DNA from: an uncultured Eubacteriales bacterium
Lineage (GTDB): Bacteria > Acidobacteriota > Aminicenantia > Aminicenantales > Aminicenantaceae
Reading direction: 5' to 3'
Assembly: GCA_964406575.1 (NCBI GenBank)
Contig: CAYOSH010000004.1
Location: 68,189 to 132,188, forward strand
Length of the DNA: 64,000 bases
Under the pieces are notes generated by a model. It was not told the DNA's origin, searched no databases, and saw nothing but the letters and a program-made list of their open reading frames with translations. Made by a program: the position numbers and the translations under genes. This document shows positions 26,294 through 47,478 of the stretch, one piece after another (the first letter of the stretch is position 1; every line of letters starts with the position of its first letter).

Positions 26294-27811
26294 ATGGATG
26301 TTTTTGCTACAAATTTCAAGACTATTGACTGGGTCATCGTAACGATCTACATCTTCATCCCTGTTATTATCGGCGTTCTTGTCAGGAAATATGTCCGTCA
26401 GCTCAGCGACTTTATCGTCGCGGGCCGCTCTCTCCGCCTGTTCATCGCCATCGCAACCTTAACCGGGACAGAGTTGGGTTTAGTGACAGTCATGTATAAC
26501 GCCGAGTTGGGTTTTTTACACGGTTTCTCAGCTTTCCACATCGGTATCATTGAGACGGTCTGCATCTTAGCCATCGGTATCACAGGATTCATCGTATACA
26601 AATTGCGCGAATTACGAGTGATGACAATTCCAGAGTTCTATGAGATGCGTTTTGGTAGAAATGTCCGCATCATCGGGGGAATCCTCCTTGCCCTCGGCGG
26701 CATCCTCAACATGGGCCTCTTCCTCCAGGCAGGAGCGAGATTCATGATGGGAGTCACAGGTTACAGCAATCCCGCCGGTCTCAAACTTTTCATGTCCGCC
26801 ATGTTGATCTTGGTCCTCATCTATACAGTCCTTGGAGGCATGGTCTCTGTCGTCTTGAACGACTTCTTGCAGTTCGTTGTCCTGTCTATCGGGATGATCA
26901 TCGGATCCTTTTTTGCCATTCGAAGCATCGGCTGGGACAACCTTTTTACGGCCCCCGCGACTGCAAATAACTCATCATGGTTTAATCCCGTAGCTGAAGG
27001 CTCTGGATTTGGCATGCTCTATGTCTTCTTTATGGTGGTTTTGACCTTCTCTGCTGGAGCATTGTGGCAATCAGGGACCCTGCGCGCTCTCTCAGCAAAA
27101 ACTCCCAAAGTGGCCAAACAACTCTTTGCGTGGAGTTCTGTTTCCTACCTTGCCAGGCGTGTCATCCCCATGCTCTGGGGAATTTGTGCCTTTGTCTTCG
27201 TATCCCGGTCATCCAAACTTCTGTCTGCATTCCAGGGGCCGGAGGCGCTCAATAGCCAGTTTGGCATGCCTCTTTTCATCGCCAAGATTTTGCCTTCGGG
27301 ATTCTTGGGGCTGATCACTGCAGGCATGGTCGCCGCCTTTATGTCCACCCACGACAGCTATCTTTTGAGTTGGAGCTCAGTCATCACCCAAGATATTATC
27401 GCACCGTTAAAAAAGGGAAAGCTCTCAGATAAAAAGCGCCTCCTAACTACACGTATCTCAATCGTCACTATCGGGCTTTTCCTTCTCATCTGGGGTCTTT
27501 GGTTTGAAGCCCCTGTCTCTTTGTGGAATTACATGGCGGTGACAGGAACCATCTATCTTGCCGGCGCCTTTACAGTCGTTGCAGCCGGATTGTACTGGAA
27601 AAAAGCCAGTAAAACCGGAGCCACAATCGCCCTCTTCGCTGGTCTTTTGGCCATCCTCGGCATCGGCCCTTGGACACAGGGCGAGAATGTCCCTTTTTAT
27701 CTAAGCGATAAATTTATCGGTCTCATGACTTTTGTTATCGCTTTTCTCGGCATGATTTTTGGCTCTCTGCTCTTTCCTGACAAAAGTTCCCGACAGGAGG
27801 ATTCAGGATGA
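26294..27811 (+). CDS. Sodium:solute symporter family (SSS) transporter
   Basis: About 13 TM segments. SSS-type N-terminus FIVAGRSL and a conserved mid-region. Confidence 0.9.
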   Translation: MDVFATNFKTIDWVIVTIYIFIPVIIGVLVRKYVRQLSDFIVAGRSLRLFIAIATLTGTELGLVTVMYNAELGFLHGFSAFHIGIIETVCILAIGITGFIVYKLRELRVMTIPEFYEMRFGRNVRIIGGILLALGGILNMGLFLQAGARFMMGVTGYSNPAGLKLFMSAMLILVLIYTVLGGMVSVVLNDFLQFVVLSIGMIIGSFFAIRSIGWDNLFTAPATANNSSWFNPVAEGSGFGMLYVFFMVVLTFSAGALWQSGTLRALSAKTPKVAKQLFAWSSVSYLARRVIPMLWGICAFVFVSRSSKLLSAFQGPEALNSQFGMPLFIAKILPSGFLGLITAGMVAAFMSTHDSYLLSWSSVITQDIIAPLKKGKLSDKKRLLTTRISIVTIGLFLLIWGLWFEAPVSLWNYMAVTGTIYLAGAFTVVAAGLYWKKASKTGATIALFAGLLAILGIGPWTQGENVPFYLSDKFIGLMTFVIAFLGMIFGSLLFPDKSSRQEDSG

Positions 27812-27951
27812 ATTGGACTCTTTTGTGGAAGGTCGTCCTCATTTTTACGATTTCCGCTTACTCATTGCTCGTGATCATCGTCATCATCGGCGGTTCAAAA
27901 AATATCGTCGAAATGCTCAAAGAATTAGGCGCCCCCAGAGAAGAACAATAG
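27808..27951 (+). CDS. Small hydrophobic peptide (47 aa), translationally coupled to the SSS transporter
   Basis: ATG overlaps the transporter stop (ATGA). MNWTLLWKVVLIFTISAYSLLVIIVIIGGSKNIVEMLKELGAPREEQ. Absent from the ORF track because it is under 60 aa. Confidence 0.35.
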   Translation: MNWTLLWKVVLIFTISAYSLLVIIVIIGGSKNIVEMLKELGAPREEQ

Positions 27952-28007
27952 GAGATTGCCCCAGCATCCCGGGCAAAACGCATAGACTTTCAAAGGATTT
28001 TGATATT

Positions 28008-28901
28008 TTGAGGTCCTTCACCTTTATCCTCAGTCTTATTGTGCTGGGAGGCTTATTCTCGCCCATCATTCATTTTTCTGGGCTGTGTGCCGGGCCTCAT
28101 TCTCAGACCCAAGAATACAATTCCTCATTCAATCCGTCGATTGACCTTAATTTGAGAAATACCCCAGAAGTAAATGTTCCCCCGTCCTCTCAAAAATGCA
28201 TCCGTGATCAGCAAGCGATCATACGCGGTGCTGCGGGGGAAAAAAAACTTGCCCTCATTTTCACAGGCGGTGATTTTTCTGATGGAGGATGTGTTATCAG
28301 AAAAACCTTGAAGGAGGAAAGGATCCCCGGGTCCTTTTTTTTTACGGGAGATTTCTACAGAAATCCCTCCAACTCAAATCTCATATCCGGGTTGATCTCT
28401 GACGAGCATTATCTGGGCCCGCATTCAGATAAACACCTGCTCTACTGTTCCTGGAAAAAAAGGGAGAAAACTCTGATCACAAAACAAGATTTTGTTAAAG
28501 ATATCCAGGACAACTATGCGGCCATGGCGCGTTTCGGGATTGAGGAGGAAAAGACCACCTACTTTGTTCCACCCTTTGAATGGTACAACACAACAATTTC
28601 CCATTGGGCGAGAGAGCTTGGACTCACTCTCATCAATTTCACACCAGGAACATTATCCACTTCAGATTACACAACTCCTGAGATGGCCAACTACAAAACG
28701 TCGGACCTGATTTATGACAGCATCATCAATTATGAGAACAAAACTCCGTCCGGTCTGAATGGCTTTATTCTGTTGCTGCACATAGGCACTCACCCAAATC
28801 GAGAAGACAAGTTTTATACCCGGCTTGCACAATTGATCCATTATCTCAAACAGAGTGGGTACACATTCCTCAGGGTAGATCACCTACTAAAAGATTGTTA
28901 G
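28008..28901 (+). CDS. Polysaccharide deacetylase family protein (CE4/NodB-like), secreted
   Basis: LALIFTGGDFSDGGCVIRKTL...FFFTGDFY...LLLHIG resembles the NodB homology region. The first in-frame Met is far downstream, so a TTG start at 28008 is inferred, followed by hydrophobic LRSFTFILSLIVLGGLF. The long upstream Arg-rich extension of the ORF (27759) was rejected. Confidence 0.6.
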   Translation: MRSFTFILSLIVLGGLFSPIIHFSGLCAGPHSQTQEYNSSFNPSIDLNLRNTPEVNVPPSSQKCIRDQQAIIRGAAGEKKLALIFTGGDFSDGGCVIRKTLKEERIPGSFFFTGDFYRNPSNSNLISGLISDEHYLGPHSDKHLLYCSWKKREKTLITKQDFVKDIQDNYAAMARFGIEEEKTTYFVPPFEWYNTTISHWARELGLTLINFTPGTLSTSDYTTPEMANYKTSDLIYDSIINYENKTPSGLNGFILLLHIGTHPNREDKFYTRLAQLIHYLKQSGYTFLRVDHLLKDC

Positions 28902-28993: not shown

Positions 28994-30046
28994 ATGGAAC
29001 GACGAAAATTCCTGAAAAACGGAGTGCTGTACAGCGCTGCAACAGGGGCATCGCTCTTTGCTAGGGAAAAAAATTTCCCTCAAAAAGCAGCTTTGAGTGA
29101 AAAAATCGAAAAAGTAAAAAGAGCCATGCTCGCTATGCAGCGGTATGCATGGGAGCAAGGTGTGGCAGCCCAGGCTATGCTGGAGTCTGGGGAGACCGAA
29201 TGGGTGATCCTGATGGCCAAGGATGCTGTCCTTCGCCAGCTCGATGACGGAAGGCTGGCTGTTGTCAGCTCTAATCAGGGGGTGACTGACCCTGCTGCGA
29301 ACGGGGAACCTGTCCTCCATGCCGCTAAAATCACTGGGGATCCAAAGCTAAAAGCCGGATCAGAAAAGATGCTCGATTATTTGCTGAACAAGGCTCCAAA
29401 AACCAAAGATGGTACGCTCTATCACATCGCCCATAAACCACAGGTCTGGATCGATTCTATGTACATGGCTCCCCCCTTTCTCGCAGTTGCCGGTCGGCCG
29501 GACGAGGCTGTACAACAGATAGAAGGATTCCGGAAATTGCTCTGGAATCCGGAGAAAGAACTCTTTTCCCAAATCTGGGACGATGAGCTGAACGATTATT
29601 ACAGGAAGGATTTTTGGGGTGTGGGAAATGGATGGGCAGCCGCAGGAATGACAAGGGTCATTAAGGCTCTGCCTCAAAAAATGACCTCAGAGAAGAAACG
29701 GCTGGTGACATATGTCCGAGAGGTTATCGATGGATGCCTCTTGTATCAGCGTGCAGATGGGCTTTTCCACGATGTCGTCGATAAACCCGAGACATTCATC
29801 GAGACAAATCTCGCCCAGATGCTCGCCTATACCATTTACCGAGGAATTCAAGGACGATGGCTGGATGGTTCATACAGGAAATACGCAGACCACATGCGTA
29901 GCGTCGCCCACCAGAAAGTGGATGAATACGGCCTTGTCCAGGACGTGTGCGGAGCTCCCAATTTCGAATCCGCCGGGACTGCCGCAGAAGGCCAGGCTTT
30001 CTTTCTGCTGATGGAAGTTGCGGCCTCAGAATGTTCATCCTCATAA
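28994..30046 (+). CDS. GH88/GH105-family unsaturated glycuronyl hydrolase-like protein with TAT signal
   Basis: Twin-arginine motif MERRKFLKNG. WEQGVAAQAMLESGE...DSMYMAPPFLAV...WDDE is characteristic of the YteR/UGL (alpha/alpha)6 hydrolases. Confidence 0.7.
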   Translation: MERRKFLKNGVLYSAATGASLFAREKNFPQKAALSEKIEKVKRAMLAMQRYAWEQGVAAQAMLESGETEWVILMAKDAVLRQLDDGRLAVVSSNQGVTDPAANGEPVLHAAKITGDPKLKAGSEKMLDYLLNKAPKTKDGTLYHIAHKPQVWIDSMYMAPPFLAVAGRPDEAVQQIEGFRKLLWNPEKELFSQIWDDELNDYYRKDFWGVGNGWAAAGMTRVIKALPQKMTSEKKRLVTYVREVIDGCLLYQRADGLFHDVVDKPETFIETNLAQMLAYTIYRGIQGRWLDGSYRKYADHMRSVAHQKVDEYGLVQDVCGAPNFESAGTAAEGQAFFLLMEVAASECSSS

Positions 30047-30060
30047 AATAATGAACGCGA

Positions 30061-30125
30061 TTTCGAAATCACCAATTGGGACACTCGGATCTCACTTATC
30101 ACGGATTTAAGCATGCATCACATTC
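30061..30125 (+). repeat. Intergenic repeat, type 1 (copy A). Core AATCACCAATTGGGACACTCGGATCTCA...ATCACGGATTTAAGCATG.
   Basis: About 75% identical to copy B (42801-42855). Related to reverse copies at 26066-26135 and 56327-56400. Lies between the GH88/105 stop and the phosphohexomutase operon start. Confidence 0.7.
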
Positions 30126-30209
30126 TCATGTTACCTTACGGAATCTAGACAATTGTTTTCATCTCATGATTTTTTTATATATAATAAAACTGACACACAC
30201 ACTGAAAAA

Positions 30210-31556
30210 ATGAAGCTCCTGAAAATTGGCATCTCGGGCGTCAGAGGAATCGTGGGAGACACTCTCACGCCCGAGCTGATCATGGATTTCGCCAGCGCAT
30301 TCGGGACCTATCTGAATTCAAAAAAAGTCCTTCTCGGCAGAGACACCCGCATCTCCGGGCCGATGCTCCATTCAGCCACAACATCCGCACTGCTGGCTGC
30401 AGGCTGTGATGTGATCGATCTGGGAATCTGTCCTGCACCGATCTTGCAGTATATGGTCATAAGGCTCAAAGCTGAGGGCGCTATTTCCATTTCTGCCGGG
30501 CACAATGATGGCGACTGGAACGCTCTGACCTTCATAAATCAGGAAGGAACATACCTGAATTCCTATCAGGGCGAAGAGGTCCTTGACATCTATCACCTGG
30601 AGAAATTCAAGAAAATGTCCACGGACAAATTGGGCAAGGTGACTCCTCACCCAGATTATCTAGATACCTACTTTGATAAACTCACCCAGTTCCTGGATAG
30701 CAGGGCGATCAAAAAAGCGGCCTTTAAAGTGGTTATCGACGCCTGCAATGGCGGGGGTGCACAAATAGTCGATGCCTTCTGCAAACATCTCGGCTGTGAG
30801 CTGATTCCTGTCAACAACGAGCCGACAGGATACTTCCCCCACGACCCCGAACCCCGGCCGCGTAATGCTTCAGAGGTGGCTTCCATCACCAAAATCATGA
30901 AGGCGGACGTGGGTTTTTTGCTCAACAGTGATGTCAGCCGTATCTCTATCGTTGCCGAAGATGGAGAAACGCTATCTGAAGAATACGCCCTCCCTCTGAT
31001 CGCAGGATATTATTTGCGAAAACAGCATGGAGCGGTCATCACCAATTATTCCACATCCCGGATGATCGAAGATGTCTCTCAATGCTATGGGTGCCAGGTT
31101 ATCAAAGCCAAGGTCGGTCAATCCGACTGTATCCAGAAAATGATCGAAGAGGATGGAGTGATGGCGGGAGAAGGGAGCGGAAGTGTCGCCATCAAAGAAT
31201 TCCAGCCGGCCTTCGATGGTTTTTTGGCAATGGGAATGATATTGGAGATGATGGCGGTGAAATCTAAGAAAATTGCAGGGATGGTCAAAGAACTTCCCAA
31301 ATACCATATCGTGAAAGAGAAGATATACTGCCCGCCTGTCAAAGCCCATTCGATCGTCAGTGACATTAAAAAACTTTATCCATCCCATCAAATATCCTCT
31401 GCGGATGGGATAAAGATCGAATGGAAGGATGGCTGGATCCACATCCGTGCCTCTGCTACAGAGCCCATGATAAGGATCATTGCAGAGAGTCGTTCAAAGG
31501 AAAAGGCACAAGAGAGATTGGAGAAGGCGACCAACTTCATCTCTCAGCTCATGTAA
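30210..31556 (+). CDS. Phosphohexomutase-superfamily paralog (PMM/PGM/GlmM-like) lacking catalytic phospho-Ser and Mg-binding loop. Probable pseudoenzyme.
   Basis: The N-terminus MKLLKIGISGVRGIVGDTLTP is conserved. The active-site loop is SAGHND instead of (T/S)ASHNP. The metal loop is NSDVSR instead of DGDGDR. The sugar loop GEGSGS and phosphate loop RASATEP are retained. The frame is intact and full-length. Confidence 0.8.
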   Translation: MKLLKIGISGVRGIVGDTLTPELIMDFASAFGTYLNSKKVLLGRDTRISGPMLHSATTSALLAAGCDVIDLGICPAPILQYMVIRLKAEGAISISAGHNDGDWNALTFINQEGTYLNSYQGEEVLDIYHLEKFKKMSTDKLGKVTPHPDYLDTYFDKLTQFLDSRAIKKAAFKVVIDACNGGGAQIVDAFCKHLGCELIPVNNEPTGYFPHDPEPRPRNASEVASITKIMKADVGFLLNSDVSRISIVAEDGETLSEEYALPLIAGYYLRKQHGAVITNYSTSRMIEDVSQCYGCQVIKAKVGQSDCIQKMIEEDGVMAGEGSGSVAIKEFQPAFDGFLAMGMILEMMAVKSKKIAGMVKELPKYHIVKEKIYCPPVKAHSIVSDIKKLYPSHQISSADGIKIEWKDGWIHIRASATEPMIRIIAESRSKEKAQERLEKATNFISQLM

Positions 31557-31557
31557 C

Positions 31558-32913
31558 ATGAAAAAAAGACTCCCGCTCAAGATCAGCATTTCTGGTGTGC
31601 GGGGAGTTGTCGGCGATAGCCTGACGCCCCAGCTCGTTGCCCGCTTTGCCCAGGCATTCGGGTCTTATCTTGGCCGAGGAAAAATCCTTGTCGGCCAGGA
31701 CGCTCGAGCTTCAGGAAACATGATCAAAAATGCAGTTTTTTCCGGTCTTCTCTCGGTCGGCTGCCAGCCTGTCGATGTTGGCATTTGCCCGATCCCCTCC
31801 TTCCTGGTTATGACTAAAGAAAACAGTGCCATCGGAGGAATAGCTGTAACCGCCAGTCACAATCCCAAGGATTGGAACGGGCTCAAGTTCATCAGCGGAG
31901 AAGGGTTGTACCTAAATCCATCACAAACACAAGAATTTTTGGATATCTACCACCAAGGCGAATTCTCTCTTGTTCCTGCGGACAAGCACAAAAATATTCT
32001 CCTTGAAAAAAATCCCACAGGCCCTCATCTCCAAAAATTACTGAACACTCTGGACGTGGAAGGAATCCGCAGGAAAAAATTCAAAGTCGTGATGGACTGC
32101 TGCAACGGAGCAGGCGCGATTCTTGCCCCTCGATTCCTGGAGGCACTGGGCTGTGAAACGATTCTGCTGAATTTCACTCCGGATGGAGCACTCGCCCACC
32201 ATCCTGATCCCGTACCAGAAAACCTCAACACGCTTTGCCGGACTGTTGAAGAGAGCGGTGCGGATGTTGGATTCATACAGGATGCGGATGCGGATCGACT
32301 GGCTATCGTGGATGAAAAAGGCGCGCCTTTAGGGGAAGAATTGACTCTAGTATTAGCCGTCAAGTATGTGCTTGGCAAAAACTCGGGATCCGTCGTCATA
32401 AACCTGTCCACGTCGCGGGCCATAGAGGACCTGGCGCATGATTTCAATGTCCCCCTCATCAGGACAAAGATCGGAGAGGTCAACGTCGTGGATGAGATCC
32501 TCAACACAAAAGCTGTGATCGGAGGAGAGGGAAACGGAGGTGTGATCCTCCCGGCTGTTCATCCGTGTAGAGACAGCTTTACCGCCATGGGATTAACTCT
32601 CGAATATATGGCTAATACAGGGAAAACTATATCTCAACTCATAGAACAAATTCCTCATTATTTTATGCTCAAGGATCAGATTCCCGGTTCACCGGAGGAC
32701 GCCTACCGGATCATAAGAAAATTGAAGAAAAAACACACAAAGGCAGAAAACATATCCACACTGGATGGCCTCAAGCTCAACTTTGTGGATTACTGGGTTC
32801 ATATCAGGCCATCCAATACAGAGCCCATAATCAGAATCTTGATTGAAGCCAGGAGTCAAAAAAAGGCTGAAAAGATTATGAGCCATTTTAAAAACGAAAT
32901 TTCAGGACTGTAA
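31558..32913 (+). CDS. Phosphohexomutase (phosphoglucosamine/phosphomanno/phosphoglucomutase family), catalytically complete
   Basis: Starts 2 nt after the upstream paralog's stop. VTASHNPKDWNG (phospho-Ser), DADADRLAIVD (metal loop), GGEGNGG, RPSNTEP are all present. Confidence 0.85.
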   Translation: MKKRLPLKISISGVRGVVGDSLTPQLVARFAQAFGSYLGRGKILVGQDARASGNMIKNAVFSGLLSVGCQPVDVGICPIPSFLVMTKENSAIGGIAVTASHNPKDWNGLKFISGEGLYLNPSQTQEFLDIYHQGEFSLVPADKHKNILLEKNPTGPHLQKLLNTLDVEGIRRKKFKVVMDCCNGAGAILAPRFLEALGCETILLNFTPDGALAHHPDPVPENLNTLCRTVEESGADVGFIQDADADRLAIVDEKGAPLGEELTLVLAVKYVLGKNSGSVVINLSTSRAIEDLAHDFNVPLIRTKIGEVNVVDEILNTKAVIGGEGNGGVILPAVHPCRDSFTAMGLTLEYMANTGKTISQLIEQIPHYFMLKDQIPGSPEDAYRIIRKLKKKHTKAENISTLDGLKLNFVDYWVHIRPSNTEPIIRILIEARSQKKAEKIMSHFKNEISGL

Positions 32914-32915
32914 AA

Positions 32916-33716
32916 ATGGAAGTGATTATCAAAAAAGACTACAGTGAGATTTGTGAGGAAGCTGTTAACGTGATTCATCGATCGTGGCACAAGAAAAGAA
33001 ATCTTGTTCTGGGTTTAGCCACGGGAAAAACACCTTTGGGTGTATATGAGGGTCTTATCCGGTTGTATAGTGAGCGAAAAATGGATTTTTCTGATGTTTC
33101 CGCCTTCAGCCTGGATGAATACTTGGGCCTTCCGGAGGATCATCCCCAGAGCTTTGCTTTCTATATGCAACATAATTTCTTTCGACACATCAACATTCCA
33201 AGGGATAACATTTTTCGTCTTGACGCTCTTCCCGGGGACATCGAAACTCACTGTCGCGAGTACGAAAAGAAAATTCAGAGTGCCGGAGGGATCGATATCC
33301 AAATTTTGGGCATAGGTAAGAACGGCCACATTGGCTTTAACGAGCCCAGCTCATCTCTCTCATCAAGGACAAGAGTCAAAACTCTCACTCAGGAGACAAT
33401 CGAAGCAAACGCACATTTTTTTCGCGACAGAGAGGATATCCCCAGATATTGTCTGACTATGGGGATCGGAACCATCATGGAATCCAGAAAAATTCTCCTC
33501 CTCGCCTCGGGCAAGGAAAAGGCCGAGGCCATCCGACAAAGCATCGAAGGATCCATCACGGCCTCAATCCCGGCCTCCATTCTCCAGCTCCATCCCCAAG
33601 CAAAATTCATCATCGATGCGGAAGCAGCATCCCAACTGACACAGAGAAAATACTACGAATGGGTGTATGACCATAAGGACAAGGTTGACGCCTTTCTCGC
33701 GAATAAAAAGAAGTAA
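32916..33716 (+). CDS. nagB: Glucosamine-6-phosphate deaminase
   Basis: LGLATGKTP...FSLDEY...ILGIGKNGHIGFNEP are canonical NagB motifs. Length 266 aa. Confidence 0.9.
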   Translation: MEVIIKKDYSEICEEAVNVIHRSWHKKRNLVLGLATGKTPLGVYEGLIRLYSERKMDFSDVSAFSLDEYLGLPEDHPQSFAFYMQHNFFRHINIPRDNIFRLDALPGDIETHCREYEKKIQSAGGIDIQILGIGKNGHIGFNEPSSSLSSRTRVKTLTQETIEANAHFFRDREDIPRYCLTMGIGTIMESRKILLLASGKEKAEAIRQSIEGSITASIPASILQLHPQAKFIIDAEAASQLTQRKYYEWVYDHKDKVDAFLANKKK

Positions 33717-33797: not shown

Positions 33798-34790
33798 CTA
33801 TGCCGGCACGCCATCCGAATAACCCGGCTGCAACCAAGCCAGATTTTTCCCCGAAAAGAAAGGTGATAAGACCTTGCCCAGACGTGCCATCTCCTGCTGA
33901 GACATCGGTTTAAAATATTTCACCAATTCGATGTTTTTTTTCAGTACATCGAGACTATCCGTACCGATGGCAGCAGCATTCACATGGGGCAGGCTTAACG
34001 CATAGCGAATCAATTCACCAGGCTTGACTCCTTCTATTGTTTCTTGAGGACGGATGACCTTCATAGCCAGGATACCCATCCCTTTTTGAGCAGCTGTCGG
34101 GATCGCCTGTTTCTCGAAATCCCCTATCCGTTCCTCATAATGATTCAGTGCAATAAGCATCGTGTCAAAATCGTACCGTTCCGCCATCGCTGCCATCGAT
34201 TCCGCAGAGAGGTGGCCGGAATAGCCGACGAAACGGGTTACTTTTTCTGCCTTCATCTTGTGGAGCGCTTTAAGCACACCGTCCTCGGAACCGATCTTCT
34301 CCACATCGTCAAGCTGTTGAACATTATGGATCTGAAGAAGATCGAGGCGATCGGTTTGTAACCGATTCAGGCTTTCTTCGATATCTTTCATGGCTTCATC
34401 GTAGGTCCTTCTCTGGACTTTTGTTGCGAGAAAGATCTCATCCCGCCGGTCTCTCACGACAAGCCCGTATCGCTCCTCGCTGACAACACCCTCGAACTCA
34501 TAATCATGAGCCGTATCCAAGTAATATAACCCATGATCCAGGGCAAAATTCAAGATCTCGATGCTCATTTCGGGTTCCTTGATCGTACAAAATCGACTTC
34601 CTCCTCCAATTACAATGAGCGGAACAGCCACACCTGTTTTCCCCAGAATCCGCGTCGGCAAGCCCTTTGAATCGTATTTCTCTTTCTCCTCCCTGGCAAA
34701 AAGCTTACGATAAGAAAAAGCGCCCAGAGCTGCGGTTGAGGCCATGCATTTTTTGAGAAAATCTCTGCGATTTATGGATCTCTTACCCAT
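33798..34790 (-). CDS. Aldo/keto reductase with twin-arginine (TAT) signal peptide
   Basis: MGKRSINRRDFLKKCMASTAALGAFS then the AKR fold (LDTAHDYEFE...). Start set at MGKRS. The ORF is open further upstream. Confidence 0.8.
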   Translation of the reverse strand: MGKRSINRRDFLKKCMASTAALGAFSYRKLFAREEKEKYDSKGLPTRILGKTGVAVPLIVIGGGSRFCTIKEPEMSIEILNFALDHGLYYLDTAHDYEFEGVVSEERYGLVVRDRRDEIFLATKVQRRTYDEAMKDIEESLNRLQTDRLDLLQIHNVQQLDDVEKIGSEDGVLKALHKMKAEKVTRFVGYSGHLSAESMAAMAERYDFDTMLIALNHYEERIGDFEKQAIPTAAQKGMGILAMKVIRPQETIEGVKPGELIRYALSLPHVNAAAIGTDSLDVLKKNIELVKYFKPMSQQEMARLGKVLSPFFSGKNLAWLQPGYSDGVPA

Positions 34791-34815
34791 TTTCCCCTCC
34801 TTCACTTTGAATAGC

Positions 34816-37512
34816 CTATGGAATTTTTTTTCCCCAGAGTCTGATATTGTCAAAACATCCTGTATCGTCAAAAGAACCGATACCCACAAGTCCATGGGTA
34901 AATGTCCTGTCCACTGCGGTCATGATGGGTGTAGTCAGGTCATCCATGTAGACGAGAACTTTTCCGGTTTTCCCTTCATAGGTGACGATGAAATCGTGGA
35001 ATTTGTCATCGATAAGCCGCGGGATGGTTTTTCCCGCCGGTTCGTTGTTGATCTTGACCCGATCCTTTCCATTCACCAGCCCGATAATATTGTGCTTATC
35101 ATCGCTGCTTGCGGAAAAATGAACATAATTGAAATGAGTAGGGTCTTGAAAATGAAAAACAACAACCATATCCCGATGCGGATTTTTTGAATCAGCTTTG
35201 CACTTCACCTGGCCCGTCAAAACAAAGCTTTCGACATCAAAGCCTTTCAAAACGGCCCATGATGTGGGGGCAACGATGGAACCCATTTCTCCAGGTGCTA
35301 AAAGATGAAAAGCCAGAGAACCTTCTTCATCGGACACTCTCCAGTTCTGAGGAAGATTCGGCCTCCATGCTCTTGCGTCACCGCTCTCAAAATCATCAAG
35401 GAACAGAAACGGGAGATTCGTTCCCGGCTGTTTTTTTTCATTCATGATCCTGGCCGTCTCAACCATCTTGCGGATAGCCGGGACAATCATGATCTTCAGT
35501 TCGCTTTCAGGTTTTTTCGGACGTTCCAACAAAGGACGGACGTGCTCATACCACTCCGCGGGTGGTTCCTGGCCCTGTTCAAGGTATTTCAAAGCCCATA
35601 GCCCTGCCTCGGCCAACATTTTCACGTCCTCTGAGAGGGGCAAAATCTCTCTCAAAAGAAATGAAGCCTCGAGAATGGGAAACAATCGGACATGGTTATC
35701 TCGCCATTCTTTGAGCAAGGTTTCTATAAGATATCGATTTTTATCATAGCGGGGAGCACTCTGCAGCATCTCATCAACCAACTGCCTGAATTCCCGAGCC
35801 TTAAGACTTTCCGGTCTGGCGGCATCCACCAGACGATTCAGGGGTGTCATCTGGGTGTATTCTTTTGTGTCGGGACGTGCATAATATTTGACAGGTTCGA
35901 CGATGTCAGTGAGCACCTTGAGTGATTCAATGGGAAACTCACCCGCAAGCCGCTGAAGCATTTTTGAATAGTTCATATGGTGGGTTAAACCCAGCCAATC
36001 CAGCTTGGTATCCAGAATCTGCAAACGCCGGTACATGTCATCCGCATCCCTCACGCTGGTTTGAGACCAAAGCCTTTCGGCTATCGCAGCCACTCTCGGC
36101 CAAATCCGAGAATCAACGGTTTCGGGATTGACAAATTCCGCCCACATGCAGGCTTCTCCCCCGAGAATGAAAGCCCGTTCATCAGAGCTTAAGGCCGTTG
36201 CATCTCCCCCCAATGGATCTACGCTATAGTGGTCTTCTGCGGAGAGTTGATGGTCCAGATAATAACCATTGGATAGGATCCCCATGTGCCCCTTTTTGGC
36301 GATTTCGGCCAGAGCCTCGGGCCCGCGCCAGCTCTGCACCACGACATCGGCGGGGAGTTCCGGATGGAAGATCTCATCCCATCCCACCATTTTTTTTCCA
36401 TGTTTTTTCACGATAATCTGGATTCGTTTATTGAAGTAAGCTTGCAGGTCATCATTATCCTTAATTCCATACTTTTTTTTGAAGAAACTGATATCCGGAC
36501 TGGCGCTCCAATGTTTACCGTTGACCTCATCTCCGCCGATATGGAAGTATTCATCAGAGAAGAGCCCGGACATCTCACCGATAAAAACATCCAGGAATTC
36601 ATAGAGTTCTTCCTTTGTTGGATCCATGCAGGGATCGAAAACACCCCATTGCCGTTCGATCTCATATAGACCGGGAGCGCTGGCCAGCTCCGGGTATCCC
36701 ACTAGCCAGGATGTGGTGTGGCCGGGCATATCGAATTCAGGAATCACACGGATTCCCCGGTCTCGCGCATACTGCACGATTTCACGAATTTGCTCATGGG
36801 TGTAGTAGTTCCCGTCAGAACCCATCTCATGGAGCTTGGGAAAGCTTTTGCACTCGACTCTGAAACCCTGGTCCTCCGATAAATGCCAGTGAAGAACATT
36901 GAGCTTCACAGCCGCCATTCCATCCAGATTGCGCTTGATCACATCGACCGGCATCCAGTGCCGACAGACATCGATCAGGAGTCCCCTCCATGGGAATCGT
37001 GGCTCATCCTCAATGCGAACAACTGGCACATAAAAGCATTCTGTGCCCAATTGAATGAGCTGCAAGAAAGTCTCTATTCCGTGAAGGGCCCCTAATGGCG
37101 TGGGTGCCTTCAGCAGAGCCCGGGCGGACGTCACTTCTAGAGTGTAGGCCTCGACCTCCTTTACCGACTGATTCTTTTCTCCCGGACCTGTGCACTGAAT
37201 CTCCAAAACGGCCTTGGAGGCATCCTTTTCCAATCCCAAGATGAGCGGTATTCCCGTCTGTATCGCCAATCGTTCGATAAGCCTGTACGCGGCTCTCTCC
37301 AGCCTTGGCTCTGTGTAGCCTGTCAACGCCACACGAAATCCGAAGTCAATGCCCAACCACCCCTGTCCGAGAGAAATCTTTTTCGGAACAGGCATGAGAT
37401 CAAGAGCCTGATTTTGAAATGCAGGATTGATTGCGTTCGATCCCAACGAAAGAAAGGCCAATAAAACAGCCATCACGATAAATCTAAACATCGAATGTCT
37501 CAAAGCTACCAT
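34816..37512 (-). CDS. Beta-N-acetylhexosaminidase, GH20, with about 300-aa C-terminal accessory domain. Secreted.
   Basis: Signal peptide. Catalytic motif EYFHIGGDEVNGKHW (the GH20 H-x-GGDE motif). N-terminal GH20b-like domain. Confidence 0.9.
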   Translation of the reverse strand: MVALRHSMFRFIVMAVLLAFLSLGSNAINPAFQNQALDLMPVPKKISLGQGWLGIDFGFRVALTGYTEPRLERAAYRLIERLAIQTGIPLILGLEKDASKAVLEIQCTGPGEKNQSVKEVEAYTLEVTSARALLKAPTPLGALHGIETFLQLIQLGTECFYVPVVRIEDEPRFPWRGLLIDVCRHWMPVDVIKRNLDGMAAVKLNVLHWHLSEDQGFRVECKSFPKLHEMGSDGNYYTHEQIREIVQYARDRGIRVIPEFDMPGHTTSWLVGYPELASAPGLYEIERQWGVFDPCMDPTKEELYEFLDVFIGEMSGLFSDEYFHIGGDEVNGKHWSASPDISFFKKKYGIKDNDDLQAYFNKRIQIIVKKHGKKMVGWDEIFHPELPADVVVQSWRGPEALAEIAKKGHMGILSNGYYLDHQLSAEDHYSVDPLGGDATALSSDERAFILGGEACMWAEFVNPETVDSRIWPRVAAIAERLWSQTSVRDADDMYRRLQILDTKLDWLGLTHHMNYSKMLQRLAGEFPIESLKVLTDIVEPVKYYARPDTKEYTQMTPLNRLVDAARPESLKAREFRQLVDEMLQSAPRYDKNRYLIETLLKEWRDNHVRLFPILEASFLLREILPLSEDVKMLAEAGLWALKYLEQGQEPPAEWYEHVRPLLERPKKPESELKIMIVPAIRKMVETARIMNEKKQPGTNLPFLFLDDFESGDARAWRPNLPQNWRVSDEEGSLAFHLLAPGEMGSIVAPTSWAVLKGFDVESFVLTGQVKCKADSKNPHRDMVVVFHFQDPTHFNYVHFSASSDDKHNIIGLVNGKDRVKINNEPAGKTIPRLIDDKFHDFIVTYEGKTGKVLVYMDDLTTPIMTAVDRTFTHGLVGIGSFDDTGCFDNIRLWGKKIP

Positions 37513-38254: not shown

Positions 38255-39853
38255 TTAGTTCTCTCCTTCTACGGCCGCGTCTTCCGGTTTCAACAGTCCT
38301 CTCCTCACGGCCTCTTCCCTCACTGGTTTCCACCAACCCAGCGGCCGAGACATGACATAGTATTTGACGAGGCGGTCCATATCTTCGGGTTTAGTCAGGA
38401 ATGTGATGGGGATGTAAATCAGCGCACCCAAAACCATCATACTCCAAAACTGAAGATAATCCGGGAGGACCGGAATGACTTTAAACTCCGGGAGAATCCA
38501 GACGACCAACCAGCTGAATCCGAGGTTGGCGATCCAGGAAGAAAGGTATCCCCAGGCATTAAATCGCCACCAGACCACTTGCAAGATATTAGGAAGCCAA
38601 ATCCCTGCAGCCATGATCCAGAGGGCAAAAATGAGCCACTGGGTGATCTCCTGCATCATCAGGCCATAGAGAAAAGAGCCCAGAAGGAGGATTAGAGTGG
38701 AAATTCTTCCCACCCAAACCAGTTCTTTTTCGCTAGCTTTTGGATTGAAGTAATGATGATAGAGATCCCGGGTAGCGTAAGAGGCTCCCAGATTGAGATG
38801 GGTAGAGATGGTCGAAAGATGGATGGCTACGATGGCAGCGAAGAAAAATCCCACAAGTCCAACAGGTAAAAACTCAAAGCCTAACCGGTACCAAGCCATC
38901 TCGGATTCGGCTGTAGATGGGATGTGGGGATACAAGGAAAAAAAAGCAAGGATCGCAACGGCCCAGAGCGAATTCCGGATTACGATCAAGGCAGAGCCCG
39001 ACCAGATGCTGTAGCTGGCATCGCGGACGGTTTTGGCAGATTGAATGCGCTGGGCTTCAGGATACCAGTCGATAGCCGTTCCCATGCCGAAGCCGCCGAT
39101 CACCGCGATGACCAGCATGGTCAAGAACCAGACTAGGGGGAAATCCCCGGATGTAACTCCCGAGAATGCAAAGGGATTCAGCCGCCAGCTCTCTCCCAAC
39201 GCATCGAGTTTGGCGATGATGGTGTTGGGCCCACCGGCGGCAACGATCCCCCAAATAGATACGATAACAATGACCGAGAGAGCGATGACGCCCTGCTGAA
39301 AATCGGCCATGACGACACCCCAGTAGCCGGCAGCCAGGACGTAAATGGCACACACAGAGGAAAAGAGGATGAGGCCGATCCATTCGGGCCACCCGAAGAG
39401 TAATCTGCAGAGTTTGCCCATGGCTATCCCAACCCAACCTAGGACGAACATGTTCATAAAAACCTGCCAGCCTGCGATCCAGCCACGCAGAAGCTCGGCC
39501 CCTAGGCCTGAAAAACGGAGAGTTTGCCATTCGGCCTGGGTATAAGCTAGAGAACGTCGAAAGATGCGGGTTGAGGCAAAAGCGGAGATGGCGCACCAGG
39601 CCGAGAAAAAAGTATACCAGATGCCGCGCAGTCCATATTTATAGATGACTCCACTGACCCAAATCGGAGTATCTGTGGCCGTATGGGTGGCATATACAGA
39701 AGCGGCAGGAAGCCACCAGGGCAGGCCCCGTCCGGCCAGGAAAAAATCCGCCATAGATCTCTTTCCAAGCCTGTAGAAGAGCACCCCACAGAACAGCATG
39801 AGAATAATGAAAGCAAACAGCCAAAACCAGTCTAAGAAGGCGAAATTGACCAT
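38255..39853 (-). CDS. Sodium:solute symporter family (SSS) transporter
   Basis: FFLAGRGLPWW is typical of the SSS N-terminus. About 13 TM segments. Confidence 0.85.
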   Translation of the reverse strand: MVNFAFLDWFWLFAFIILMLFCGVLFYRLGKRSMADFFLAGRGLPWWLPAASVYATHTATDTPIWVSGVIYKYGLRGIWYTFFSAWCAISAFASTRIFRRSLAYTQAEWQTLRFSGLGAELLRGWIAGWQVFMNMFVLGWVGIAMGKLCRLLFGWPEWIGLILFSSVCAIYVLAAGYWGVVMADFQQGVIALSVIVIVSIWGIVAAGGPNTIIAKLDALGESWRLNPFAFSGVTSGDFPLVWFLTMLVIAVIGGFGMGTAIDWYPEAQRIQSAKTVRDASYSIWSGSALIVIRNSLWAVAILAFFSLYPHIPSTAESEMAWYRLGFEFLPVGLVGFFFAAIVAIHLSTISTHLNLGASYATRDLYHHYFNPKASEKELVWVGRISTLILLLGSFLYGLMMQEITQWLIFALWIMAAGIWLPNILQVVWWRFNAWGYLSSWIANLGFSWLVVWILPEFKVIPVLPDYLQFWSMMVLGALIYIPITFLTKPEDMDRLVKYYVMSRPLGWWKPVREEAVRRGLLKPEDAAVEGEN

Positions 39854-39866
39854 GTAGACTTCCCTT

Positions 39867-41096
39867 CTAAATCACTGGTTTTCCATAAACGTATGTCTGC
39901 TTGATCTGTAATTCTTTATCATACACAGTCAAGTTAGCATATTTCCCTTTTTCAATGCTTCCCATAACTTTATCCAAACCGAGTACACGGGCAGGATTGA
40001 GAGATGCCATCAACACGGCCTCACTAAGAGAAAGATCCGTCCAATCGAGAACATTTTTTACGGCTTTGTTCAGAGTCAACACACTTCCCGCCAAAGAACC
40101 GCCGTCCTTAAGACGTGTTTCATCACCCTTAACCGTAATGTTGAGTTTGCCCAGGATATAGTCCCCATCTCCCAAGCCAGCCGCAAGTATCGAATCTGTT
40201 ATCAGGCAAACGTTTTCCAGGCCTTTCCGATCGAGAACAAGCCTCACAAAAGCAGGATGAACGTGAATGCCATCACAGATGAGCTCGACACTGACCTTCT
40301 CCGATTCGAGGACTGCCCCTACAACACCGGGTTCCCGATGACGGAATTCAGGTATCGCATTGAAAAAATGAGTCGCATGCGATATTCCAGCCTTGATGCC
40401 TTCGAGAGCTTGTTCGTAGGTCGCACCCGAATGCCCGATGGAAACAACAATCCCATTCTCCCTGAGTGTTTGGATAAAGTGCATATTGTCTTTGACTTCG
40501 GGAGCTATTGTAACGATCACCTTGAGTCCTCGGGTAGCTTCGATCAGAAGTTGTATCTCTTCTTCTGTGATTTCCTTGATATAATCAGCATTCTGCGCTC
40601 CGCACTGCTCCACATTGAGAAAGGGGCCTTCGACATGGACGCCTAGAGGCTTGGACACAAGGGGAAATCCAGGAGACTTTTTGACTGTCTCAACAACTTT
40701 GAGAATCGATGCGAACGGGGCCGAAAGCGTTGTCGCAAGAAAAGCAGTGACTCCTGTCCGGGCCAAGTGGCCGCCGATGATGTTGAAGCTCTCCATATCC
40801 GCGTCCATGAAATCCCTCCCCAGAGCCCCATGGACATGAAGATCGATAAAACCCGGTGAGATGTAGTGATTGCTGTGATCCAGAAAATAGCTCCTGCCGT
40901 CCCAGGTGCGCTCACTCTGCTCATAGATATCTGTAATCCTCTCGCCCTCGATCTCGATGACTGCTTTGGCGAGAACCCTATCTGGAAGGATGACATCTCC
41001 CTTGAGGATCGTTTTCTGAGCCGTTGGATTTTCGCCCTTCATTTGATTCCTCTTTTTATTATTTCTAAATATATCCATCAACTCCTCATTTTTCAA
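39867..41096 (-). CDS. nagA: N-acetylglucosamine-6-phosphate deacetylase
   Basis: PGFIDLHVHGALGRDFMD (HxH metal site), plus the amidohydrolase beta-sandwich and TIM barrel. About 400 aa. Confidence 0.9.
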   Translation of the reverse strand: MKNEELMDIFRNNKKRNQMKGENPTAQKTILKGDVILPDRVLAKAVIEIEGERITDIYEQSERTWDGRSYFLDHSNHYISPGFIDLHVHGALGRDFMDADMESFNIIGGHLARTGVTAFLATTLSAPFASILKVVETVKKSPGFPLVSKPLGVHVEGPFLNVEQCGAQNADYIKEITEEEIQLLIEATRGLKVIVTIAPEVKDNMHFIQTLRENGIVVSIGHSGATYEQALEGIKAGISHATHFFNAIPEFRHREPGVVGAVLESEKVSVELICDGIHVHPAFVRLVLDRKGLENVCLITDSILAAGLGDGDYILGKLNITVKGDETRLKDGGSLAGSVLTLNKAVKNVLDWTDLSLSEAVLMASLNPARVLGLDKVMGSIEKGKYANLTVYDKELQIKQTYVYGKPVI

Positions 41097-46419: not shown

Positions 46420-47478
46420 TTATTGATCGGTAACGGTGAGGCCGGATGGAGAAAGGATAAAGCGGAGGGATTTGATGCCTTTGCCGAGGGAGTTGATCTC
46501 CTGGAGCATGTGTTCGCGCTCATGGCTTCTGGAGCTGCCCAGGATAGTTAGTGATCCTCCTTTTCCGCCTGCGCCATTGACCTTCCATCCTGCGGCGTTA
46601 TATTTTTTTGCGATTGCGATGACAGTATCGGCCTCAGCAGGTATAAGGCCTGAATGAAGTGCTCGCTGACATTCGTTATTTTGAATCATCATTTTCCCAT
46701 AATTCTTCAAATCTCCTGTTTTGAGATAATCTCTCGCCCGCTCAGCCAGGATTCTCATTTTTATGATCTCTTTGGACTGCGGTCCTCCTGTCTCGAGAGT
46801 GGAAATGACATCATCATGGATCTCTGAAGAACGATGGGACTTTCCCAGGTAGATCAAGCTTAGCCTCTGCTTCAACTCATCTCTTAAGCTCAAAGGCAAG
46901 AATAAATTTGTAACCTTGGCTTCTGGGTAGTTATACATGTGGATAAAACAAATCCCTCCGTAGGCGGCACATATCTGATCCTGGACTCCGCTTTGGAGAC
47001 CGAGTTTTTCTGTTTCCACACGGTGCGCCAGGGACACGATTTCGTCTGTAGAGCGGGTTTGAGGTGAAAGCGCGGCGATCGCCCCGATGAGAGCTACACA
47101 CACCGAAGCGGATGTCCCGATGGCGCTTCCGGCCGGAACATGGGCTGAAACACTGACTTCAAGTTCGTGTTTTATCGGAATCCGCAGAGAATTGAGAGCC
47201 CCCTGGAGATAGGGATGGACATCGTAAGCAGGCTCGTCCGGGTCCATCCAAAAGGAGTCTCTGTAATCTTTGGCTTTGACAAGGACTCTTTTTTCCCTTC
47301 TTCTTTTGTTGGGAAAGACCTTGATCTCCACTTCGACCGGAGGGGAGATAGCCAGGTTCAAAACCTTGCCTTCACCCGAGAACCAGGTGTCTGTCCAGCC
47401 GCCTATATCGTTGATGCGCAAAGGCGCTGTGGCATGTATAACTCGAGAAGGAGTTCTTGCAACCATAGCCCTAACCAA
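46420..47478 (-). CDS. GHMP-family sugar kinase (HddA/fucokinase-like)
   Basis: APLRINDIGGWTD and HVPAGSAIGTSASVCVALIGAI are the GHMP ATP-binding motifs. Confidence 0.8.
   Translation of the reverse strand: MVRAMVARTPSRVIHATAPLRINDIGGWTDTWFSGEGKVLNLAISPPVEVEIKVFPNKRRREKRVLVKAKDYRDSFWMDPDEPAYDVHPYLQGALNSLRIPIKHELEVSVSAHVPAGSAIGTSASVCVALIGAIAALSPQTRSTDEIVSLAHRVETEKLGLQSGVQDQICAAYGGICFIHMYNYPEAKVTNLFLPLSLRDELKQRLSLIYLGKSHRSSEIHDDVISTLETGGPQSKEIIKMRILAERARDYLKTGDLKNYGKMMIQNNECQRALHSGLIPAEADTVIAIAKKYNAAGWKVNGAGGKGGSLTILGSSRSHEREHMLQEINSLGKGIKSLRFILSPSGLTVTDQ

Follow-up and report, generated by a model that had tools for sequence, protein, structure and literature searches.

A conserved tandem of phosphohexomutase genes in Aminicenantaceae pairs a predicted pseudoenzyme with its canonical paralog

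Why would a bacterium keep, directly upstream of an intact phosphohexomutase gene, a second full-length copy that lacks the residues of catalysis? The question is raised by a 64,000-nucleotide stretch of contig CAYOSH010000004.1 (assembly GCA_964406575.1), from an uncultured bacterium placed in the Aminicenantaceae; we refer to this whole 64-kb stretch as the window. Two paralogous mutase genes, here called UP (upstream) and DN (downstream), are followed there by nagB, all three on the forward strand. UP (30210..31556; 448 aa) encodes an α-D-phosphohexomutase paralog; it opens with the ATG at 30210, the start common to all UP orthologs (whose proteins begin MKLLKIGISG), and closes with the TAA at 31554-31556. 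DN (31558..32913; 451 aa; ATG at 31558, stop at 32911-32913) encodes a canonical phosphohexomutase of the Arch_GlmM type. The UP/DN junction, TAA-C-ATG (31554..31560), leaves one nucleotide (C) between stop and start, a spacing consistent with translational coupling. Two nucleotides separate DN from the third gene (TAA-AA-ATG), which lies at 32916..33716 and is, by its profile score (TIGR00502, 308 bits against a cut-off of 237), a true NagB, glucosamine-6-phosphate deaminase. The outer limits of the pair (30210-32913) and both spacings are exactly those given in a first-pass annotation of the window, which had also proposed that UP is a regulatory or heteromeric partner of DN. Judged from sequence, UP is a pseudoenzyme, that is, a homolog whose essential catalytic residues are gone and which is under purifying selection. 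We lean toward the view that it serves as a noncatalytic, ligand-binding subunit of a heteromeric UP-DN mutase.

Fold and active-site residues of UP and DN

UP and DN align end to end with 42% identity (E = 2e-128), and the relationship is therefore one of homology, not of chance. Both proteins match all four PGM_PMM domains (I-IV; PF02878, PF02879, PF02880, and PF00408), each of them above cut-off in UP, so that the earlier description of two proteins of the same length and fold holds. The NCBIfam equivalog model for phosphoglucosamine mutase, TIGR03990 (Arch_GlmM; cut-off 439), scores UP at 447.9 bits and DN at 506.1 bits. Compared by sequence with solved archaeal enzymes, UP matched the group comprising P. 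horikoshii PH0923 (1wqa), T. kodakarensis PGMTk (9du5), and the S. tokodaii protein (2f7l) at E values from 1.8e-84 to 9.2e-81. An AlphaFold2 model of UP (mean predicted local distance difference test score 89.1; predicted template modeling score 0.91) was poor only at residues 1-17, and its best structural match was PGMTk, with a template modeling (TM) score of 0.91, against 0.89 for 1wqa. On the strength of this model, we are confident in the prediction that UP retains the four-domain α-D-phosphohexomutase fold.

The active sites of the two proteins differ. DN carries the four phosphohexomutase signatures that the first-pass annotation had listed, TASHNP (residues 98-103), DADADR (242-247), GGEGNGG (322-328), and RPSNTEP (417-423). 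For UP, we compared each position between 139 canonical relatives and 13 lineages of the clade to which UP belongs. The phosphoserine loop of UP reads SAGHND (residues 95-100; 30492..30509, forward strand), in which His98 is kept and Gly97 aligns with the Ser of TASHN in DN, 1wqa, and 9du5, a position occupied by Ser in 139 of 139 canonical relatives. The counterpart of the metal loop DxDxDR reads NSDVSR (residues 239-244; 30924..30941, forward strand). Here Asn239 stands in place of the first Asp and Ser243 in place of the third, which removes two of the three Mg2+ ligands and leaves only the middle Asp and the Arg. Both readings, already reported in the first-pass annotation, stand in the same register against DN and the P. 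horikoshii and T. kodakarensis enzymes. Three further losses (Lys107 to Thr, Glu304 to Gln, and Arg335 to Phe) affect residues that are each at least 93% conserved among the canonical relatives. Position 107 (Thr in UP; 30528..30530, forward strand) is Lys in 99% of them and Thr, Ile, Met, Val, or Leu across the UP clade; we take this Lys to correspond to Lys118, a catalytic residue, in P. aeruginosa PMM/PGM. Arg335 is conserved in 97% of canonical relatives.

The loops that contact the substrate have fared differently. The sugar loop of UP, EGSGS (residues 321-325; 31170..31184, forward strand; preceded by (A)G, and EGNGG in canonical proteins), keeps Glu321 and the glycines, with the subfamily-conserved Asn323 and Gly325 both changed to Ser. 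The domain 4 phosphate loop, RASATEP (residues 413-419; 31446..31466, forward strand), keeps Arg413, Ser415, and Thr417, with Ala in place of the canonical Asn; Arg413, Ser415, Thr417, and Glu418 are conserved across the UP clade. The earlier claim that UP keeps its sugar- and phosphate-binding loops is thus right as to their presence and needs amending as to their sequence, since neither loop is identical to its canonical form. In addition to His98, Glu321, and the four phosphate-loop residues, UP retains Arg12, Asp45, Arg47, Asn104, Asp177, Glu214, Pro215, Asp241, Arg244, Glu257, Asp336, Lys369, and Arg422. Several of the replaced positions are themselves conserved in the UP clade (Asn239, Ser240, Ser243, Gln304, Ser323, and Tyr154), and the clade carries an EPRPR segment where canonical proteins have EPxPE.

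These comparisons suggest a pocket from which the phosphoryl-transfer machinery is gone and in which the residues that hold the sugar phosphate are kept and partly remodeled. Without the phosphoserine, two of its three metal ligands, and the catalytic Lys, UP would be incapable of phosphoryl transfer. The residues predicted to hold the sugar phosphate are the sugar-loop Glu, the Arg/Ser/Thr loop of domain 4, Arg12, Arg47, His98, and Arg244.

Could UP nevertheless still be an enzyme, with another nucleophile (e.g., His98 or Ser243) or with a different, metal-independent sugar-phosphate reaction at its remodeled site? The strong conservation of the substituted positions (Asn239, Ser240, Ser243, Gln304, Tyr154, and Ser256) is what neofunctionalization would give, and His98, Asp241, and Arg244 are invariant. 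We nonetheless consider this improbable, given the simultaneous loss of the phosphoserine, two of three metal ligands, the catalytic Lys, and an Arg that is 97% conserved. Moreover, Ser243 is replaced by Val or Asn in two members of the clade (L013 and P0167), and we know of no precedent in the superfamily for an alternative nucleophile or reaction.

The first-pass annotation had itself named a way in which its interpretation could fail, namely, that the Ser of ISISAG in UP might act as a shifted nucleophile. That Ser, at position -2 of the loop, aligns with the Thr or Ser usually found at position -2 of TASHN and is thus not displaced. A profile search further yielded 111 Lentisphaerota-type clusters (mostly unnamed, with Lentisphaerota or Victivallales labels where a source was named) that have IG[AG]GH[HQ] at the phosphoserine loop and mostly NSDMSR at the metal loop. 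This group has no hydroxyl at position 0 or -2, the latter being Gly, a finding that speaks against any residual enzyme that would use this loop as well. The shifted-Ser candidate was rejected, and the interpretation of UP as catalytically degenerate came through this check.

Constraint, gene order, and ancestry of the pair

A duplicate from which several catalytic residues have gone might be decaying into a pseudogene. For UP, this explanation is refuted by the sequences of its relatives, and we give it practically no chance. The best 120 UP homolog clusters, 61-97% identical and drawn mostly from Aminicenantes metagenome-assembled genomes (MAGs), are full length (430-480 aa, with 110 of the 120 at 448 or 449 aa). 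They carry the same degenerate motifs: AGHN is present in all 120 and NSDxSR is exact in 114, with near variants in the rest, and neither [TS]ASHN nor DxDxDR occurs in any of them. Both of these canonical motifs are kept in 120 of the best 120 DN homolog clusters. The UP reading frame is intact in every locus examined. Across eight Aminicenantes loci, the median ratio of nonsynonymous to synonymous substitution rates (dN/dS; Nei-Gojobori) was 0.073 for UP, below the 0.094 of its active paralog DN, and 0.117 for NagB. Synonymous divergence was saturated in many locus pairs; the more robust figure is the comparison of dN, which was lower in UP than in DN in 28 of 28 pairs. Mean column identity within the Aminicenantes was likewise higher for UP (0.76) than for DN (0.72). 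Together with a clade that spans several phyla, these results uphold the first-pass statement that UP is no decaying duplicate. That annotation had pointed to frequent disruption of UP orthologs as the observation that would indicate otherwise; what was found instead is full-length orthologs with their degenerate motifs kept and a dN/dS of approximately 0.07.

Is UP conserved together with DN? A scan of genome contigs returned close Aminicenantes relatives only, plus one unrelated Clostridia mutase. The UP-DN pair was present in eight of eight Aminicenantes loci (the window, L001-L006, and L009). In L001-L006, the order UP, DN, nagB was kept (tblastn), with nagB after the pair wherever the contig reaches beyond DN; the contig of L004 fits only the first 150 NagB residues. 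In L009 (61% identity), the same pair is followed only by a 79-residue unidentified open reading frame (ORF) before the contig ends. Two of these loci, L001 and L004, belong to the same Aminicenantaceae MAG (MFD12937_ilm_asm_bin5), which thus holds two diverged copies of the UP-DN-nagB operon; their UP copies are 89% and 79% identical to that of the window, and only the second has a 21-nt instead of a 1-nt gap.

To look beyond close relatives, we examined the 150 best matches of a HMMER search of 1.84 billion representatives. Among these, 23 had no phosphoserine and 25 had EGS instead of EGN in the sugar loop. The gene context was examined for eleven distant representatives of the noncanonical clade, 35-44% identical to UP, and in 10 of the 11 a canonical four-domain paralog lies directly downstream. 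Eight of these pairs are P0125 (locus L008), P0121 (L010-12), P0124 (L013), P0128 (L016-18), P0146 (L019-20), P0164 (L021-22), P0151 (L023-24), and P0189 (L025-26). In the other two, P0122 (L027) and P0152 (L028), the contig ends within the downstream ORF, which shows only the partner's typical N terminus, LKISISGVRGVVG...TPQL. Overall, the pair is kept in 18 of the 19 lineages examined, always with the degenerate copy first and the canonical copy second; the spacing of the two genes lies between -11 and +3 nt in 15 of 18 loci, and the downstream partners are canonical at every motif. The genes around the pair differ between lineages and include a HAD hydrolase, an NAD-epimerase, a GH94 phosphorylase, flagellar genes, tRNA synthetases, and a NagB-GHMP kinase fusion, so that the sole constant neighbor of the UP-type gene is its canonical paralog. 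Further co-located pairs are hinted at, if only roughly, by 25 UP-type and DN-type clusters whose longest contigs, matched by eye, are equal in length. The pair, whose conservation among relatives the first-pass annotation had proposed to examine, is thus kept together far outside the close relatives of this genome.

At two of the distant loci, a HAD-family hydrolase gene (approximately 220 aa) comes right after the pair (L008:8766-9434 and L025:7745-8401), overlapping the canonical gene in L025. It may encode a sugar-phosphate phosphatase or a β-PGM-like enzyme linked to the pair.

A neighbor-joining tree (100 bootstraps) placed the NSDxSR-type UP proteins in one clade (bootstrap 92) and their partners in a separate clade within the canonical group (79). 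The internal branching of the two clades is parallel; for example, L008 groups with L025 in both. This topology fits one ancient duplication followed by co-inheritance of both copies. The wider clade of upstream partners also displays graded loss. P0152 and P0122 keep the Ser and the Lys, and either keep all three Asp residues as well or are without the first Asp only; L016 and L023 are without the Ser only, with the third Asp changed to Glu; and the type found in the window is without the Ser, the Lys, and two Asp residues. Arg335 is lost in all members. Because Ser-retaining members are already upstream partners, the series suggests that pairing is older than catalytic death.

By source name, members of the UP clade come from Aminicenantes and Terriglobia (Acidobacteriota), Armatimonadota, Chlamydiota-labeled MAGs, and one Bacteroidota-labeled MAG. 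They are abundant in Lentisphaerota/Victivallales, where their carriers include the cultured species Victivallis vadensis and two named genomes whose contigs span 3.2-3.7 Mb. Two proteins, P0002 and P0314, carry Asgard labels (Heimdallarchaeota/Helarchaeota) and are 70-90% identical to Aminicenantes UP and DN; because they are so close to the Aminicenantes sequences, the labels probably reflect mis-binned contigs and not archaeal genes.

Possible roles of UP beside DN

Taken together, the first-pass reading of UP as a conserved partner is supported and extends well beyond this genome; as to mechanism, we infer physical association, stoichiometry, ligand binding by UP, a regulatory role, and the amino-sugar substrate from sequence comparison. 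In the heteromer toward which we lean, UP would be co-translated with DN, an active mutase and the presumed catalytic subunit, and would most likely join it in a hetero-oligomer as a structural or allosteric, ligand-sensing subunit. At its place beside nagB in the window, the pair would convert hexosamine phosphates between the 1- and 6-phosphate forms. We favor a heteromer because the gene order is fixed, the frames overlap or nearly abut, the phylogenies run in parallel, constraint is strong, and the ligand-binding residues are kept. Duplication of a homomer, with paralogs that still assemble and one that then degenerates, is a well-known route to heteromers of an enzyme and a pseudoenzyme. 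The closest solved homolog of UP, PGMTk (9du5), is a D2 homotetramer, a dimer of dimers formed through domain 1 and a strand of domain 2 (PMC11940775). Since this homolog is a D2 homotetramer, an α2β2 UP-DN complex derived from the same arrangement is plausible, and the passage from duplicated homomer to heteromer would be a short evolutionary step.

Several observations weigh against such a complex. The PGMTk interface contacts (Asn15, Glu16, Glu21, Met56, Ser63, Ser67, and Arg139-Lys141, with Tyr192-Pro213) were placed on UP and DN by hand. The corresponding segments contain no deletions in either protein and Met52 is conserved, and the salt bridges are not clearly kept, a hand mapping that is by itself uninformative; the polar contacts of the dimer interface are not obviously conserved in DN, in which the position of Arg139 is Leu by the same mapping. 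Across deeply diverged lineages, UP is the faster evolving of the two (mean column identity 0.37, against 0.45 for DN). Conserved adjacency can reflect a common pathway instead of a complex. The literature searched holds no experimental assignment of a substrate for this bacterial subfamily. Finally, one of the eleven distant representatives, P0171 (Victivallaceae; L014-15), is a Ser-less gene without an adjacent partner, the sole solitary case. Its genes (L014:3133-4509 and L015:23-1399; motifs GGHQ and NSDLSR) are flanked by yajC on one side and cbiM/cbiQ on the other, and the neighborhood holds no mutase gene. The gene for a partner may be located elsewhere in the genome, or this protein may work by itself.

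Some of these points would suit a protein that binds sugar phosphates on its own, a noncatalytic sensor or buffer resembling Gal3 that is co-transcribed with DN for the sake of a common pathway and forms no stable complex with it. Binding residues that are kept where catalytic ones are gone, the solitary P0171, and interface polar contacts that are not clearly conserved are all compatible with such a protein. We regard it as rather unlikely, though not as remote as a residual enzyme, because the canonical paralog is the only constant neighbor, is invariably the downstream gene, and in most loci overlaps the UP-type gene or starts no more than 3 nt after it; because UP and DN clades diversify in parallel; and because UP has no DNA-binding or signaling domain, its four PGM_PMM domains being all it contains.

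The heteromer hypothesis can be widened to the Ser-less proteins at large. These would then be a widespread class, found in Aminicenantes and other Acidobacteriota, Lentisphaerota including Victivallis vadensis, Armatimonadota, and Chlamydiota-labeled MAGs, of obligate heteromeric mutases in which the dead paralog is an allosteric subunit with an intact sugar-phosphate pocket. We put this forward tentatively, with somewhat less than even confidence. Possible ligands of the dead subunit include, for example, the 1,6-bisphosphate activator and an end-product of the pathway.

Pseudoenzyme paralogs beside active enzymes are a known principle. The closest analogy is ADP-glucose pyrophosphorylase, as GlgC/GlgD in Firmicutes and as the small and large subunits in plants. 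There, neighboring paralogous genes encode a catalytic and a noncatalytic subunit that assemble into a heterotetramer of homotetrameric ancestry, in which the inactive subunit tunes activity or regulation. That system differs from UP-DN in fold and reaction, and for UP-DN both complex and modulation are our conjecture. Yeast Gal3, a paralog of the sugar enzyme Gal1, resembles UP in having kept ligand binding and lost catalysis. Gal3, however, is a galactokinase-derived sensor that acts on a transcriptional repressor and not on its active paralog, and no signaling partner is evident for UP. Nearer in family is GlmM-CdaA of Firmicutes, in which a phosphoglucosamine mutase dimer acts as a protein-protein regulator; its structures 7olh, 7ojs, and 9g69 are among the structural matches of UP. 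Unlike UP, GlmM retains full catalysis in that complex, where it is joined by a cyclase to which it is not related. The archaeal-type phosphoglucomutase/phosphomannomutase and phosphoglucosamine mutase enzymes (1wqa, 9du5, and 2f7l; TIGR03990) share subfamily and four-domain fold with UP and DN. They are homo-oligomers in which every subunit is catalytic, whereas UP-DN includes a co-encoded paralog without the phosphoserine, two Mg ligands, and the catalytic Lys.

Within the superfamily, the vertebrate protein PGM5 (aciculin) is a nonenzymatic cytoskeletal adaptor that keeps the TASH phosphoserine and other active-site motifs (PMC5570346). Like UP, it is a superfamily member retained for a noncatalytic role. 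PGM5, however, has no known active-paralog partner, whereas UP has visibly lost its motifs and is tied to an active paralog by gene order. No other nonenzymatic member is described in the literature searched, and the PGM-like 1 and PGM-like 4 groups of CDD were listed as of unknown function in 2022 (PMC9426568). Full-text searches for phosphohexomutases, phosphoglucosamine mutases, or phosphoglucomutases as pseudoenzymes, heterodimers, or inactive paralogs returned nothing relevant; in the same literature, phosphohexomutases appear only as monomers or as homo-oligomers with all subunits catalytic, and a pseudoenzyme beside its active paralog is not described for this superfamily.

If the heteromer is real, it would be the first heteromeric, pseudoenzyme-regulated phosphohexomutase. 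These enzymes feed cell-wall, glycogen, and amino-sugar metabolism, and the coupling of an active paralog to a conserved dead one would be a new means of regulating or assembling them. The family would also provide a clean natural series from duplicated homomer to enzyme/pseudoenzyme heteromer, given that Ser-keeping intermediates and intermediates with loss of the Ser only survive elsewhere. Its presence in the cultured Victivallis vadensis makes the hypothesis open to experiment.

Annotation and the surrounding glycan locus

The similarity of UP to canonical enzymes has consequences for annotation. UP of the window and the Armatimonadota protein P0128 (470 bits) both pass the TIGR03990 cut-off and are publicly named "phosphoglucosamine mutase". 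More diverged members of the UP clade score 297-394 bits, below the cut-off, and are named "hypothetical protein". UP is very unlikely to be functionally equivalent to the TIGR03990 seed enzymes, because the catalytic residues needed are absent. By fold it is a superfamily member, yet it fails two of the four defining active-site features and should therefore not be filed as a phosphoglucosamine mutase. UP-type proteins that pass the equivalog threshold inflate the number of GlmM enzymes counted when the metabolism of uncultured phyla is reconstructed.

The pair in the window lies in a glycan and amino-sugar utilization locus. Around it are genes for a GH2 enzyme, an HGSNAT-like acyltransferase, a GH113 enzyme, a SASA esterase, a symporter, CE4, GH88, UP, DN, and NagB; the opposite strand nearby carries an aldo/keto reductase (AKR), GH20, a second symporter, and NagA, and, farther off, a GHMP sugar-kinase-like gene beside a GH36-like gene. 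Immediately upstream of UP on the forward strand are a Na+/solute symporter (26294..27811), a CE4-type polysaccharide deacetylase (27759..28901; true start uncertain), and, as the last gene before UP, a GH88 unsaturated glucuronyl hydrolase (28994..30046). The symporter-CE4-GH88 order upstream of UP recurs in L002, L003, and L006, and several of L001-L006 also keep the symporter, CE4, GH88, AKR, and GH20 neighbors. The 163-nt intergenic region 5' of UP (30047..30209, forward strand) contains one promoter-like match at 30156-30185; the number of consensus promoter matches in this region was not above the shuffled expectation. It is possible, if weakly indicated, that the UP-DN-nagB transcription unit starts here.

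NagA (39867-41096, reverse strand; TIGR00221, 353 bits) and NagB complete the deacetylase and deaminase steps, with NagA on the opposite strand approximately 6 kb away. Adjoining NagA is the second Na+/solute symporter (38255-39853, reverse strand), 25% identical to the symporter at 26294-27811. The GHMP-family sugar-kinase-like gene (46420-47478, reverse strand), whose best matches, all sub-threshold, are the anomeric kinases HddA, fucokinase, and galactokinase, lies beside a GH36 (melibiase)-like gene of 925 aa (47606-50383, reverse strand). The window ORFs scanned included no ROK or NagK-type kinase, and no anomeric kinase is adjacent to UP-DN-nagB, the GHMP kinase-like gene being 13 kb off.

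In the distant locus L019, the mutase pair is followed directly by a NagB-GHMP kinase (GalK-like) fusion of 615 aa (L019:7710-9557, forward strand), the NagB part of which scores 284 bits with TIGR00502; DegT aminotransferase and GFO/IDH oxidoreductase genes lie upstream. The arrangement hints at a hypothetical route in which an anomeric kinase would convert a sugar to its 1-phosphate, the mutase would convert this to the 6-phosphate, and NagB would deliver fructose 6-phosphate. Such a route would account for the presence of a mutase gene in an operon with nagB. The GHMP kinase-like gene of the window, whose similarity to the kinase portion of the L019 fusion is only weak, could be the source of the sugar 1-phosphate. 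Outside the Aminicenantes, the pair occurs in housekeeping contexts and is therefore not specific to amino sugars.

Two further genes of the locus deserve mention. The gene at 20149-21252 (reverse strand), for a bacterial homolog of the catalytic domain of HGSNAT (heparan-α-glucosaminide N-acetyltransferase), overlaps the start of the GH2 β-galactosidase gene. Its association with GH88, GH20, and CE4 genes is unusual and would fit the processing of glycosaminoglycans or host glycans. The aldo/keto reductase ORF (33798-34895, reverse strand) overlaps the end of the GH20 gene (34816-37512, reverse strand) by 80 nt. Translation of the reductase probably begins within the listed ORF at MGKRSINRRDFLKK..., a sequence resembling a twin-arginine signal; a start there would make the product a predicted exported aldo/keto reductase in a glycan locus.

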